From UHGV virus genome UHGV-0207032: a stretch of DNA of 43,131 nt; one strand, written 5' to 3'. Each line of letters opens with the position of its first letter. The stretch's first letter is position 1. Shown here one piece after another: positions 10,581 to 24,796 of this stretch. Under the pieces are notes generated by a model. It saw only the letters and a program-made list of their open reading frames with translations, made no database searches and was not told the origin of the DNA. Source of the DNA: a virus. A program made the translations under genes and the position numbers.

Positions 10581-11711
10581 TTAGTAGATATTTTCCATAA
10601 TGTTTTTAATAGCGGTATTATCCTTTTCTTCTAACTCTTTGATTGTATGCAAATATGTTTTCATAGTTGTGTTGATATCAGCATGTCCTAATCTTTTTGA
10701 AACTGATAGTATGTTTACTCCTTTATATAAAAGCACCGAAGCATGTGTATGGCGCAAGCCGTGTATGCTAAGTGGCTTATCTATACCAAGTTCTTTTAAC
10801 CTTACTCGTAACTGTTTTGTTACAGCGTTTTGTGAGACCGGTCCATTCTTAATATTGAAAAAAATAAAATTATTAGGATTATCAATACCGATGTTACTAA
10901 TAAGTTGCTCCTGATCGCTTTTATATTTTTTTAGAATAGATAGTGTTTTGTTGTCGATCGGAATTTTTCTTAGCGATGATGGATTTTTAGTTGGTCCGAA
11001 TTTGTTTAACTTATAAAGCCACGTCTTATTAACATCTACTATTCCATTATCAAAATCAATATCAGACCATGTTAATCCCATAAGCTCAGCTAATCGCATA
11101 CCTGTTGCCCCAGCAAAGAAAAGCAAGAATGGGGATGCATAGGTGGGATTTATTCGAGTCTCTAAGAGTTGCATTAGTGCCTGAAACTCGTCGTAGTTAA
11201 GGTATTTATTCTCTGTAGGCTTGCTAGGAAGTCCTTTAATCACTACGTTATAAGTGGGGTTCCTGAGAACTAATCCTTGTTCTACCGCATCATCTAGCGC
11301 TGATTTTATATGATTGTTTAATTTAGCAGTTGTAGATCTGGCATGTGTTTTAGCGTAATTATTCAACGATTTTTGATAGTTTGCTTTATCTAGGCTTGAT
11401 AATGTGGTATAAGGAAACAATTCTTTTATAGCACTCAATGTGTTTAAATATTTCCTGTAAGTTATTTCAGATACATAATTTTCTTTGTACAATTCTATCC
11501 AGTTCTTGAAAAAATCATATAACGTAAGGCTATTTTTGTCAGCCTGATATCCTCGGCCTAGGTTGTAAGACATTTCTATTTCAGCTTCCTTGGCTTCAGC
11601 TTTGGTTTTAAAGCCGCCTTTTCTTATTTTGCTATATTCACCAGTAGCTTTTTTATATGATATTTCAAATTGCCATGATTTGCCACGCTTTCTTACTGCC
11701 AATTGATTCAA
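10581..11711 (-). CDS. int: Tyrosine integrase (phage integrase family)
   Basis: 376 aa; N-terminal SAM-like arm-binding region; C-terminal catalytic residues in ...GMRLAEL..., ...HGLRHTHAS..., ...LGHADINTTMKTYLH (R..HxxR..Y pattern). Confidence 0.9.
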   Translation of the reverse strand: MNQLAVRKRGKSWQFEISYKKATGEYSKIRKGGFKTKAEAKEAEIEMSYNLGRGYQADKNSLTLYDFFKNWIELYKENYVSEITYRKYLNTLSAIKELFPYTTLSSLDKANYQKSLNNYAKTHARSTTAKLNNHIKSALDDAVEQGLVLRNPTYNVVIKGLPSKPTENKYLNYDEFQALMQLLETRINPTYASPFLLFFAGATGMRLAELMGLTWSDIDFDNGIVDVNKTWLYKLNKFGPTKNPSSLRKIPIDNKTLSILKKYKSDQEQLISNIGIDNPNNFIFFNIKNGPVSQNAVTKQLRVRLKELGIDKPLSIHGLRHTHASVLLYKGVNILSVSKRLGHADINTTMKTYLHTIKELEEKDNTAIKNIMENIY

Positions 11712-11802
11712 CTCCTCAACTTTGATACAATAGGCATGACCAAATAAGCCTACTGTTTATTTGTTTTTGCGCGCTCTCCCGTCGAAAGTGGAGCGTGCTT
11801 TT

Positions 11803-12287: not shown

Positions 12288-12614
12288 TTATAAAGGATTA
12301 TTCTTTCTAAATTCTATATATCTTAAAATATCATCCATATCTTCTTCCGAAACATCATCATCAATATGAGCGGCTAAAAGCTCTCCGTGGGCACCTAATT
12401 TTCTCTCAAAGTCTTCTCTACCCAACAAATAGTCAACCGAAACACCAAATAGCGATGACAGTTTCTCTAATACATCACTTGGTATTTTAGTAACTGTACC
12501 TCGTTCATAATTAGATATATTCTCTCTTTTCATCCCTAAAAAGTCAGCAAGTTCTTTTTGTGACATTTTTTTATTCGATCTTAATTCCTTTAATCTCAAT
12601 GCAAATGTACTCAT
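12288..12614 (-). CDS. XRE-family HTH transcriptional repressor (CI-like)
   Basis: HTH MSQKELADFLGMKRENISNYERG; 108 aa; divergent from the cro-like gene. Confidence 0.8.
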   Translation of the reverse strand: MSTFALRLKELRSNKKMSQKELADFLGMKRENISNYERGTVTKIPSDVLEKLSSLFGVSVDYLLGREDFERKLGAHGELLAAHIDDDVSEEDMDDILRYIEFRKNNPL

Positions 12615-12660
12615 AATAATCTCCTCTCAGTTATTTTTAACGAAAAAATAAAGAAAAGGG

Positions 12661-22565: not shown

Positions 22566-22979
22566 TTGAGTAAGAATGATTCATTAATCAATGAGCTGGA
22601 TAGAAAGTTTGCTAACTATCCAGCATACAACAAAGAGATTGCTATTCGTAAGGAAGAGTTAAAGCTTCGAGAAGTCGATGAAAATATTGGTGGCGGTCGA
22701 AGTAATATCATGAGCAATCCGATTGAGTCGCAGGTAATCAAGGAAATGTCTGATCCGTACATTATGAATCGAGAACTGTGGAAAAAGGCAGTCAAAGAAA
22801 CTCTGAGCGATCAAAGTGCAGAGATAAGACAGTTGATTGAAACCAAGTACTGGGGCGAAGACAGTTGGATGGATTGGGTAAGCTTCGGCAAAAAGCATGG
22901 ATATGCGAGAACGCCAATCTATCGTATTAGACAAAAAGTTTTACTCGACTTTGGCAGAAAGATCGGTGAAATCAATTAA
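22566..22979 (+). CDS. ArpU-family late-gene transcriptional regulator
   Basis: 137 aa; sits immediately upstream of the packaging module as in Enterococcus and Lactobacillales phages; sigma-region-4-like C-terminus. Confidence 0.55.
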   Translation: MSKNDSLINELDRKFANYPAYNKEIAIRKEELKLREVDENIGGGRSNIMSNPIESQVIKEMSDPYIMNRELWKKAVKETLSDQSAEIRQLIETKYWGEDSWMDWVSFGKKHGYARTPIYRIRQKVLLDFGRKIGEIN

Positions 22980-22989
22980 TTTGGGAAAG

Positions 22990-23575
22990 AAACGTGTAGT
23001 TTTCCCTGTGTCAAGAGGGGTAAAATAGTATTATCAGATATCGCCCACAAGCAAATGACAGATCATTCTCCTTTCATTAATGCTTAGTTGGTGCTTGTGG
23101 GCGATAGTCACTGTGGCGGAAAGGGTAAACGCTAAGTCCTAGTTGGGAAGGCAAGTGCACTTGCTAAGGAGTGAAACTCAACATGCAAGGTTCGATTCCT
23201 TGCCAGTGACATAGGCAAAAGCCTCCTGATTGCAAGGGGTAAGTGCAAGTAGCCTAAAAAAGCGCGCGGAGGTAGCTCCCTCAAGTTGGTATATAGTTTA
23301 AAGGGAAAACAGTCGTCAGAATGCGGAGGATGTCGGTTCGAGCCCGACTATGCCAATAGGGTTTATAGTTATCCCATTAAAAACTTGGTGTTTCGCTACC
23401 TTGATGCGAACGAACAAAGAAAGCAACCGAGGCTGTGGAAGGGCGGAGGAGCGGACGTCGGGCTCGTGTAGGTTGCTTTAAATTTAAGTCAATACTCTCA
23501 TTCCCTTGTGGCAGACGTGTATCTGATATGAGAGTTTTATAAGTCACTCATTGCGAGTGGCTTTTTATTTTGCAG
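22990..23575 (+). ncRNA. Candidate large structured non-coding RNA (ornate large RNA / tRNA-like element?)
   Basis: ~590 nt with no credible ORF; 14-bp inverted repeat ATCGCCCACAAGCA/TGCTTGTGGGCGAT (23039-23104); two tRNA T-arm-like hairpins CAAGG-TTCGATT-CCTTG (23186-23202) and GTCGG-TTCGAGC-CCGAC (23332-23348); recurring GCAAG hairpins; ends at terminator 23541-23572. Confidence 0.35.
23541..23572 (+). terminator. Rho-independent terminator
   Basis: AGTCACTC-ATTGC-GAGTGGCT stem (8 bp, one G-U pair) followed by TTTTATTTTG. Confidence 0.55.
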
Positions 23576-23584
23576 AAAAGCGAG

Positions 23585-24796
23585 GTGGCAGACATTACTA
23601 AATGGACGGAACAGCAGGTCAAACGATTGTCGGAATTGGCAAATGAAGGACTAACAAATATAGAGATAGCACCTGTGTTGTCAGAGGAGTTCGGCAAAGA
23701 GTTTTCATGGCCAAGCGTTAGAAGTAAACGTGCCAGGTTGGGTTTGCCACCGAGCGAAAAGAATATGCGTGTTAAGCAAACAGATAAGGCTAAGAAGAAT
23801 GTAGTATCTACAGAAATTAAATCAGATGGTACTCAGACAAACCTTATCAAGTTGCGTATGACTGAAGAACAGTCAAAGAATCCCGATTATGTATTACAAG
23901 CACACGGGTATGATCCCGAAAATTGGGAATTGGTTCAAGCGACTAATAACATCTGGGAACAGAACAACCAAGTAGATGGACTTATACAGCTTTATCAATC
24001 AAAGATAGTTGTTAAGCCGAAACATAAAGGATTTAACATAGCAGCCTTCACCGAATCAATCGAGCCAGTAAAGCTAACTGCAATCAAGAATGGTGACAGA
24101 AACTTATTCATCGGTTTGGCTGATTGGCATTTTGGTATCACTAAGCTAGAGGATTTACAAGATAAGCTCGCAAGAATGATTGAAGTTATCTCAAAAGGCT
24201 ATAAGCAGATTGTTATTGGTCAGCTAGGAGATTTATTCCATAGCAGCCAAATCAAGAAGTCGGTCACGATGGCTGGCACACAATTAGATGATGTGGACAT
24301 GGAGCAAGCGATTAAAGACGCTCGCTCCTTTTTTGACCTGTTGATTACTGAGTGTGTGAGACATTCGAAGCAAGTGACTGTTGAACATGCAGAGGGGAAC
24401 CATTCGGGAAACTTGGAATACATGTTTCTTCTGTACCTAGAAGCAAGATATCCGGATATCCAAGTGCACGCACACAACAAATACCGCCAAGCGTTCATGT
24501 TGGATAATGTGGCGATCATGATTACTCATGGGCAGTATGGCAAGCGAAAGGATTTGCCGATGTTGTTTGCTACTGAATTTAGCGATATATGGAGTAAGGC
24601 AACTACAAGGGAGATAATCACTGGTCATTTCCACACGCAACAGACAAACGACTATCAAGGTGTGATTCATCGGCAGTTAGGAACCATTAAGCCGAATGAC
24701 AGCTACGAGATAGAGAACGGTTGGACGATGGGCAAGAAAGTGCTGCAGTTGTTTGAATATGATAGTGAAAGGTTGAGGGTGACGTATGACATCTAA
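23585..24796 (+). CDS. HTH-domain / calcineurin-like metallophosphoesterase (Mre11/SbcD-like) fusion protein
   Basis: Phosphoesterase motifs GLADWHFG, GQLGDLFHS, AEGNHSGN, ITHGQYG, ITGHFH in the C-terminal 230 aa; N-terminal ~100 aa helix-turn-helix-like (TKWTEQQVKRLSELANEGLTNIEIAPVL); the start is uncertain because the ORF-track TTG at 23570 lies inside the terminator, so GTG 23585 was taken. Confidence 0.55.
   Translation: MADITKWTEQQVKRLSELANEGLTNIEIAPVLSEEFGKEFSWPSVRSKRARLGLPPSEKNMRVKQTDKAKKNVVSTEIKSDGTQTNLIKLRMTEEQSKNPDYVLQAHGYDPENWELVQATNNIWEQNNQVDGLIQLYQSKIVVKPKHKGFNIAAFTESIEPVKLTAIKNGDRNLFIGLADWHFGITKLEDLQDKLARMIEVISKGYKQIVIGQLGDLFHSSQIKKSVTMAGTQLDDVDMEQAIKDARSFFDLLITECVRHSKQVTVEHAEGNHSGNLEYMFLLYLEARYPDIQVHAHNKYRQAFMLDNVAIMITHGQYGKRKDLPMLFATEFSDIWSKATTREIITGHFHTQQTNDYQGVIHRQLGTIKPNDSYEIENGWTMGKKVLQLFEYDSERLRVTYDI

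Follow-up and report, generated by a model that had tools for sequence, protein, structure and literature searches.

We found that a gene-free stretch of a 43,131-nucleotide (nt) virus genome, UHGV-0207032 (all of which is hereafter called the window), specifies a chain of independent small RNA modules, one of which, element A, has a nearly constant scaffold resembling the leucine transfer RNA (tRNA-Leu) and a lower half that is hypervariable among its relatives. The window is an Enterococcus-type prophage, and the stretch lies between a late-gene regulator and the packaging genes. Comparison with related loci revealed a modular anatomy, a covarying tRNA-like scaffold, anticodon arms that are abnormal or absent, an accessory slot of changing content, and adjacency to the large phage RNA known as ROOL. 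We lean toward the explanation that the late operon has, in its leader, an accessory cassette of non-coding RNA in which tRNA-like top halves serve processing and stability and the remainder is variable cargo. RNAs resembling tRNA are already a known kind; apparently new here are the tRNA-Leu body, the T stem of 6 base pairs (bp), the hypervariable replacement of the anticodon and variable arms, the site in a late leader, and the partnership with ROOL.

Element A occupies positions 23107..23211 of the + strand, where the minimum free energy (MFE) structure is a multi-arm cloverleaf of -36.8 kcal/mol that accounts for 31% of the ensemble. Its 7-bp acceptor stem pairs GTCACTG (23107-23113) with CAGTGAC (23204-23210) and is followed by U8 and a D-arm at 23115-23133 (sequence TGGCGGAAAGGGTAAACGC), which together fit the family pattern GGCGGAA..GUA(G/A)ACGC. 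In an L001-type member (L numbers denote related loci), the D-arm pattern of the family matches positions 7-26 of Escherichia coli tRNA-Leu (leuV) at 19 of 20 bases. Where a tRNA would have its anticodon and variable arms, element A has a 51-nt core (23134-23184) of three small hairpins with 3-4-nt loops. The T-arm, GCAAGG-TTCGATT-CCTTGC (23185-23203), is preceded by ..CAT (U48) and combines a 7-nt loop with a 6-bp stem, compared with 5 bp in tRNA. The discriminator is A23211, no CCA is encoded, and the next bases are TAGG. On the + strand of the 43-kilobase window, only element A and a second module, element B, combine a T-arm with a complementary 7-nt acceptor. Element A had no match to any Rfam model even at an expect value (E) ≤10 and no call from the tRNA finder ARAGORN. 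To judge by its identical scaffold sequence, it evidently belongs to a larger group, the A family; outside the window, its core was seen only as near-identical copies, in L005, L129, and L190.

We assembled relatives as 59 loci found via the regulator protein, 117 viral contigs found via the DNA pattern, 10 genome contigs, and 8 contigs with an identical regulator. Across 32 distinct A scaffolds, 98.4% of alignment cells pair, versus 79% in shuffles and 31-43% when the partner strand is slid, a percentage that is partly circular, pairing having been a filter in assembling the set; no such circularity affects the compensatory changes, and 11 of the 16 pairs change on both sides. Covariation across homologous phages, on which an earlier note made from the sequence had staked its reading of the region as RNA, is therefore present in the A scaffold. 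MAFFT mis-registers the acceptor stem between A subfamilies, whose acceptors include GTCACTG/CAGTGAC, GTCGCTG/CAGCGAC, GTAAGTG/CACTTAC, GCATGTG/CACATGC, and TGACAGG/CCTGTCA. Phages with regulators only 27-36% identical, recovered without use of the RNA pattern, have the acceptor TGACAGG/CCTGTCA or GCATGTG/CACATGC in place of GTCACTG/CAGTGAC.

The positions that build the tRNA tertiary core are also kept in the family. U8, A14, and A15 are invariant, and U48, the base before the T stem, is present in 91 of 95 elements. D-loops with GG accompany T-loops of the T54..A58 type (T..RA), and D-loops without GG accompany GGCRGTG-type loops, an association that is strong by Fisher's exact test (p = 1e-10, uncorrected for phylogeny). 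The discriminator is T in 63 elements, A in 28, and G in 4; the base after it is U in 91 of 95, and none encodes CCA. We conclude that the A family is a real, conserved RNA structure with a nearly constant tRNA-Leu-like scaffold.

The lower halves behave quite differently. We counted 57 distinct cores, 19-152 nt long and mostly predicted to form hairpins, in at least 27 classes that lack detectable similarity to one another. Within the commonest class the first hairpin is maintained by compensatory changes (AAGCA/TGCTA, AGGCA/TGCCT, TTGCA/TGCGA), and wherever a phage has two A copies, their cores differ. At L028:3488-3670, and also in L030, a complete tRNA-Ile(GAU) is nested in an A core with acceptor GCATGTG/CACATGC (60 bits with Rfam, and called by ARAGORN too). 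The second A element of L061 and L062 (e.g., L062, - strand, 12537-12635) has a 6-bp hairpin with the loop CU-GGU-AA or CU-AGU-AA. This loop fits the anticodon-loop consensus (Thr), and its core class might still decode despite the extra arm.

The A family is widespread and apparently undescribed. Its pattern occurs in 117 viral contigs and in genomes of 9 Enterococcus species, with a variant in a Leuconostoc phage. When the region and common A variants were compared by blastn with 50,697 phage records, only short matches were returned, none of them annotated (an E. gallinarum phage, VEsP-1, EH-TP1, and Leuconostoc phiLM33_01). The elements are blank in the annotations of the isolated phages VEsP-1 and EH-TP1 because tRNA finders and Rfam miss them; the family is absent from Rfam 15, and we found no description of it in the full-text literature searched, the coverage of which was incomplete. 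The nearest open reading frame (ORF) upstream of an A element is usually a small regulator from one of several families (phrog_36, phrog_248). An exact A-family element also appears in L184, a 518-bp contig of a 'Vibrio olivae' assembly (NZ_JBHMEP010000156.1), which is probably contamination by an Enterococcus phage.

Element B scores as tRNA. This 70-nt cloverleaf gave the sole Rfam 15 match in the whole window (RF00005, 42.4 bits versus a gathering score of 29), and ARAGORN names it 'tRNA-Leu(cag)', from position only. It has a 7-bp acceptor, a D-arm, a T-arm (GTCGG-TTCGAGC-CCGAC, 23332-23348), no encoded CCA, and the trailer UAGGG. The two T-arm hairpins of the earlier note, each followed by a 7-nt strand complementary to an upstream 7-mer, were found as described; its remark that no complete cloverleaf could be assembled does not hold for the second of them, for which ARAGORN and Rfam build one at 23286/7-23356/7. 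The anticodon arm of B is abnormal, with a 3-bp stem and an 8-nt loop (UCAGAAUG), and the Rfam alignment flags non-canonical pairs in the stem. A normal anticodon arm (5-bp stem, 7-nt loop, U33, and a purine at 37) occurs in neither A nor B.

Relatives of B have a similar acceptor and T-arm around a variable anticodon arm. Two (L014, L064) are normal tRNA-Lys(UUU), others have G at loop position 33, and in L017 and L027 the anticodon arm is a triloop hairpin, TCTGA-CTG-T(C/T)AGA. For the closest relative (L010/L011), ARAGORN gives an impossible 2-nt anticodon, and the selenocysteine/stop ('suppressor') labels that it attaches to B relatives are better read as the triloop hairpin. At L016:3320-3358 we observed a deletion remnant of B in which the 5' acceptor strand and D-arm are fused to the 3' acceptor strand (ACGTGTAGCTCAGTTGGTAACCTCGTTTCACGTCAATAG).

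The two tRNA-like elements stand in the following series of features, all on the + strand:
22566..22979, +, late transcriptional regulator gene, 137 amino acids (aa), directly 5' of the cassette
22980..23038, +, promoter-like/operator block, conserved in all close relatives
23039..23106, +, hairpin P1, a 15-bp perfect stem (arms 23039-23053 / 23092-23106) with a 38-nt loop containing CUCCUU
23107..23211, +, element A, a tRNA-like RNA that derives from tRNA-Leu and lacks an anticodon arm
23212..23286, +, spacer, which holds a small hairpin (GGAGG-TAGCT-CCCTC, 23268-23282) shortly before B
23287..23356, +, element B, a cloverleaf scoring as tRNA
23359..23375, +, small hairpin GGGUU..AUCCC after B, conserved in L001, L005, L006, and L011 and retained in the minimal L003
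23420..23479, +, hairpin C, closed by AAAGCAACC / GGUUGCUUU
23491..23538, +, hairpin D, AAUACUCUCAU / AUGAGAGUUUU, also in L017
23541..23572, +, putative intrinsic terminator, by sequence a 9-bp stem (23541-23563) plus the T tract TTTTTATTTT
23570..24796, +, 408-aa gene, the first downstream, outside the RNA cassette and given for context

Behind regulators identical or at least 91% identical to that of the window, the content of this slot varies widely. In L003 it shrinks to 177 nt holding only the promoter block, P1, one small hairpin, and the terminator, and in L002, L009, and L012 it holds small protein-coding inserts; these have their own ribosome-binding sites (L002:3560-3830; L009 and L012:3600-4100). 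Other slots carry different combinations of A, B, and C. L190, for example, joins the A element of the window to a different B and a different C, and the slot of a metagenome scaffold, L195, from which the window probably derives, is identical to that of the window. Such independent recombination speaks against one interlocked fold and against a need for the tRNA-like parts in late-gene control. We also noted slots (L191/L192:3010-3729) that include a DUF559 endonuclease-like gene instead of or beside RNA modules.

Few bacterial RNAs of unknown function are larger than ROOL and GOLLD, for which cage-like structures have been solved. The slot of L018, whose regulator is 77% identical to that of the window, contains a ROOL (846-1434 within slot 596-1484; 251.9 bits) with the same promoter-like block and P1 on its 5' side and a similar terminator on its 3' side. 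In three further contigs, ROOL lies in tRNA arrays and is followed after 13 nt by an A-family element (L079:1140-1851; L123:801-1512; L159:1395-2106, - strand; 264-268 bits); in L123 a C-type hairpin comes after the A element. By analogy with mascRNA, this arrangement of ROOL, 13 nt, and A could define the 3' end of ROOL. ROOL is encoded by phages and prophages, often near tRNA islands, and its function is unknown (PMC12286853, PMC5737381); GOLLD is likewise phage-borne, near tRNA islands, and of unknown function (PMC5737381, PMC12286853), and GOLLD RNAs of Lactobacillales phages sometimes have tRNAs embedded in a variable linker (PMC12286853). We found no mention of tRNA-like neighbors of ROOL in PMC5737381 or PMC12286853.

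The RNA of the window itself belongs to neither class. A 751-nt segment had no match to the ROOL model (RF03087, gathering score 99.1 bits) at the gathering threshold or at E ≤10, and the GOLLD model matched neither that segment (E ≤10) nor any of 39 related loci. As positive controls, L018, L079, L123, and L159 gave 252-268 bits with the ROOL model. The permissive Rfam scan of the 751 nt (E ≤10) added only noise, with no match resembling tmRNA (transfer-messenger RNA) or Y RNA. Among the Rfam families raised in the earlier note, tRNA was thus matched, by element B, and GOLLD, ROOL, and tmRNA were not. Its suggestion of a GOLLD/ROOL-type locus captured the niche, as the L018 slot and the adjacency in L079, L123, and L159 illustrate, and failed on membership.

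We propose that the cassette works as follows. Rightward transcription would start from the conserved promoter-like block adjoining the late-regulator gene, and most transcripts would stop at the terminator (23541-23572), with read-through yielding late messenger RNA (mRNA) in a manner like that of lambda PR'-6S RNA-tR'. The primary transcript would consist of the modules P1, A, B, C, and D strung together, each independent of the others. Within it, A and B would act as tRNA mimics that keep the acceptor/T helix, the elbow formed by the D- and T-loops, U8, A14, A15, and U48 and have no usable anticodon arm. Bacillus RNase Z prefers a U at +1. Given the acceptor/T helix, the absence of an encoded CCA, and the U at +1, we suggest that host RNase P could cut the 5' ends of A and B and RNase Z could cut after the discriminator, upon which CCA would be added; the products would be stable RNAs of about 105 nt (A) and 70 nt (B). 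More tentatively, and well short of what we would call probable, the tRNA top half may be a scaffold for processing and stability and the variable lower half the specific, rapidly evolving part, which would act on some factor of the host or of a competitor; phage-host conflict is the most plausible setting. The conservation of cores within classes, the differing cores of multi-copy phages, and the analogy with an engineered scaffold (see below) led us to place specificity in the lower half.

Several points weigh against this account, the partial circularity of the pairing percentage among them. The promoter, RNA ends, processing, and CCA addition are all inferred, and a scan with the sigma-70 consensus found no + strand site. 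The three hairpins of the core in the window lack covariation support because that core was found only in near-identical copies. An unconserved discriminator argues against a conserved aminoacylation identity. No target of the A cores was found, and in a search for antisense targets, 23036-23575 had no complement of ≥12 nt elsewhere in the window. Neutral exchange of cassettes at conserved scaffold sequences could also produce variable cores.

The main alternative, which we regard as possible and on balance unlikely, places the effector in the top half: A and B would be tRNA decoys that soak up host factors recognizing the acceptor end or the elbow, for example tRNA-binding sensors or abortive-infection toxins that modify the tRNA 3' end, such as AbiEii/MenT-type nucleotidyltransferases and CapRel-type pyrophosphokinases. 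Without an anticodon loop, the RNAs would then be of no use to the ribosome and would escape anticodon nucleases. Phage tRNAs are known to counter tRNA-targeting defenses. The decoy idea agrees with the strong constraint on the top half and the tertiary-core nucleotides and with anticodon arms that are replaced in A and degenerate in B, whose relatives span normal tRNA-Lys(UUU) and the triloop form. The accessory, highly variable nature of the cassette is also usual for counter-defense loci. However, it leaves unexplained why cores are conserved within classes and always differ in two-copy phages, and the anticodon loop, missing here, is what most known tRNA nucleases recognize.

Less likely still is that the region is a cis-regulatory leader of the late operon in which attenuation, processive antitermination, or maturation of the mRNA 5' end needs the tRNA-like modules. 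A position after the late regulator gene and before the first late gene, with a terminator at its end that must be read through, is what such a leader would have, and P1 and the terminator are present in all close relatives examined, minimal slot included, with L007 alone lacking P1. The minimal L003 slot and the protein inserts of L002, L009, and L012 nevertheless imply that late expression does not need A, B, C, or D, which would reduce a regulatory core to P1 and the terminator at most; moreover, A elements also occur inside the tRNA arrays adjoining ROOL.

We consider it improbable that A and B are decaying, functionless relics of phage tRNAs. Pseudogenes might well show the abnormal anticodon arms, the odd or impossible ARAGORN anticodons, and the B deletion remnant of L016, yet decaying genes would not hold their acceptor, D, and T stems together by fully compensatory changes among phages with regulators 27-36% identical, would not keep U8, A14, A15, and U48 or the matching of D-loop to T-loop, and would not yield 27 unrelated, internally structured cores on an unchanged scaffold.

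Working decoders, with A as a tRNA-Leu bearing an intron or extra arm and B as a tRNA-Leu(CAG) or suppressor, have very little in their favor beyond the score of B above the Rfam tRNA threshold, the tRNA-Leu D-arm and A73 discriminator of the A element in the window, and the L061-type core loop CU-GGU-AA that equals the anticodon-loop consensus. Set against this, ARAGORN with default settings called none of 76 distinct A elements as such, reporting only the nested tRNA-Ile in two of them; with introns allowed it called 1 of 76, and relaxed settings, which the earlier note had suggested, gave inconsistent anticodons for A elements. With Rfam, the A class that looks most like tRNA scored at best 14 bits, against tRNA-Sec (E = 2.2). 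An intron-containing tRNA-Leu was rejected on the ARAGORN results and because the window and related loci had no Intron_gpI match. Element B, for its part, combines a 3-bp anticodon stem with an 8-nt loop and has no long variable arm such as tRNA-Leu carries.

Least credible of all is a single large ornate RNA of a new class or a DNA element (pac/cos or a recombination hotspot), both of which the overall fold, the ROOL at the same position in L018, and the location upstream of packaging genes might suggest: independent gain, loss, and recombination of modules are incompatible with one interlocked fold, covariation and strand asymmetry favor an RNA function, and no pac/cos-type repeat pattern was seen. 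Of the earlier proposal of a large ornate non-coding RNA, the structured, non-coding, and tRNA-related character stands and the single large fold does not; for the pac/cos role raised beside it, nothing was found in support.

Returning to the accessory RNA cassette that we favor, several known systems resemble parts of it. ROOL shares its niche, both in the slot of L018 and through the A elements 13 nt downstream, and differs in being a single 580-nt fold, in contrast to the separable small modules of the window. GOLLD, with its embedded tRNA, recalls the tRNA-Ile inside the A core of L028. Both mascRNA, which lies 3' of MALAT1, and the tRNA-like units of murine gammaherpesvirus 68 are non-decoders recognized by RNase P and RNase Z, and cleavage of the mascRNA type sets the ends of the neighboring non-coding RNA. 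The succession of ROOL, 13 nt, and A has the same layout, although those systems are eukaryotic or viral and transcribed by RNA polymerase II or III, and the Rfam mascRNA model aligned with an A element in the T-arm only (11.9 bits, E = 6.7).

The tRNA-like domain of tmRNA and the bacterial Y-RNA-like YrlA both use an acceptor, a T-arm, and a reduced or retained D-arm around a non-tRNA interior, as the upper half of A does. ARAGORN reports no tmRNA, the 19-152-nt interior of A elements contains no tag reading frame, and tmRNA has a G3-U70 alanine identity pair where A has C3-G70; YrlA had no Rfam match in the permissive scan. Another counterpart is man-made: in the engineered tRNA scaffold of Ponchon and Dardel, a structured RNA reportedly replaces the anticodon arm and the tRNA body gives processing and nuclease resistance. 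The A family has the same architecture, differing in being natural, derived from tRNA-Leu, and equipped with a 6-bp T stem. Compared with phage tRNA genes and arrays, A and B sit where related phages carry ordinary tRNAs, and the copies in the window lack a normal anticodon arm. In lambda PR'-6S RNA-tR', a regulator gene, a promoter, a short terminated leader RNA, and a terminator stand directly before the late genes. By analogy, the order here is the same, with a regulator of the ArpU/RinA type, which is regarded as an activator.

The promoter-like block contains an inverted repeat, GGGAAAGAAAC..GTTTTCCC (22983-23006), followed by TGTCAA (23009-23014) and TATTAT (23029-23034); from the conservation of the block we infer a promoter function for 22980-23038, with a start near 23040. 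The repeat varies on both arms (GAGACAAAAAC/GTTGTCTC in L011 and GACACAAAAG/GTTTTGTC in L027) and differs between regulator subtypes. Downstream of a phrog_248 (ArpU-type) regulator gene in L062 (- strand, 11660-11720), we observed TGTAGGG directly repeated three times ahead of a TATTAT box and a P1-like hairpin, likely an activator-binding late promoter of another type than that of the window.

Hairpin P1 (MFE -28.4 kcal/mol, z = -4.91) has arms that are 100% complementary. The earlier note had seen it as a perfect 14-bp inverted repeat; the repeat is perfect and measures 15 nt, with the second arm displaced by 1-2 nt. Judged by inspection only, and with two P1 length classes, P1 is kept in every slot variant that has the promoter block of the window, including the 177-nt L003 and the ROOL-bearing L018; it has a different stem sequence in L027, L017, and L015 and is absent in L007. 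Its loop (23054-23091; also in L006, L027, and L062) keeps an anti-Shine-Dalgarno-like CUCCUU constant despite the differing stems. The opposite strand of the loop reads AAGGAG followed by ATG, and the resulting tiny ORFs are unconserved; a minus-strand small ORF starting there (AAGGAG..ATG) was dropped on inspection since its frame and length differ between variants.

The spacer between A and B (23212-23286) folds no better than shuffles as a whole (z = +0.88), and its small hairpin just 5' of B recurs in relatives as GAGGG/CCCTC or GGAGG/CCTCC. The 9-nt closing arms of hairpin C are 100% complementary (z = -1.95), and a closing stem of the form AGCAACC(G/A)AG ... GTAGGTTGCT recurs with unrelated interiors in L005, L017, L022, L062, L064, L123, and L190. 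Two longer-range pairings were rejected. L005 and L017 lack the 10-nt perfect complement between the 3' side of the B T-arm (23339-23348) and the loop of hairpin C (23457-23466), which is probably due to chance, and the pairing of 23021-23040 with 23520-23539 in the whole-region MFE structure is not conserved in L017. A further conserved module, AACCTACGGAAACAATC..ATCGGATGCCGAT..GGTGTAGGTTAGG, lies 3' of tRNA-like elements in L014:1170-1300, L027:3935-4090, and L123:1515-1650; it matched no Rfam family and is absent from the window. The terminator ends 10-20 nt 5' of the next gene, so late transcripts must read through it, and it is kept at the slot end in relatives, including 3' of the ROOL in L018.

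Only short, unconserved ORFs occur between the regulator gene (22566-22979) and the 408-aa ORF (23570-24796) that bracket it. The 137-aa regulator matches phrog_36 (7.6e-11) and phrog_248 (1.4e-6), both annotated as transcription regulator/activator, and has a precomputed Pfam match to PF05263 (DUF722); the protein at its position in the Enterococcus phage VEsP-1 is annotated 'ArpU family transcriptional regulator'. The 408-aa protein (phrog_704, 9.2e-87; annotation 'DNA repair exonuclease') combines a DNA-binding-like N-terminal segment with a metallophosphoesterase. Its start is ambiguous: TTG 23570 lies inside the terminator T tract, GTG 23585 is in frame, and GAGGTG (23581-23586) resembles a ribosome-binding site, for which the next in-frame start candidates are GTG 23585 or ATT 23594. 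From 25750, two ORFs have the position and size of small and large terminase subunits (putative), followed by a 539-aa ORF.

Within the region, a 61-aa frame (23286-23471) overlaps element B. In L011 the corresponding frame ends after 30 codons, shortly beyond the tRNA-like sequence; similarity to L011 is limited to the tRNA-like part, and the 61-aa frame has no Pfam match. We rejected it as a protein gene. The whole-region fold of the + strand (-194.7 kcal/mol) is far more stable than shuffles (z = -4.75), and the - strand is weaker (z = -3.08). The earlier description of the region as non-coding and highly structured thus proved sound, as did its intrinsic terminator (23541-23563 plus the T tract), and the sequence features that it listed are all present, some with coordinates slightly off.

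These findings bear on how Enterococcus phages deploy accessory RNAs. ROOL in these phages occupies a defined expression slot made up of a regulator gene, promoter block, P1, cargo, and terminator, and the same slot can carry tRNA-like RNAs in its place, which provides natural alleles with and without ROOL to compare. A tRNA-like family abutting the 3' end of ROOL leads to testable ideas on how ROOL ends form and what ROOL works with. Speculatively, and as a conjecture we would not expect to hold in full, Lactobacillales phages might practice a natural 'tRNA scaffold display', in which a constant tRNA-Leu top half, processed and stabilized by the host, presents a hypervariable module that acts as an aptamer or decoy against host defense or competitor factors; such RNAs might be partners or cargo of the ROOL nanocage, co-transcribed with it or exchanged with it at one locus. 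With at least 27 unrelated inserts on one tRNA-Leu body, the A family would be nature's equivalent of the engineered tRNA scaffold, and it is a candidate new class of fast-evolving phage accessory RNAs.

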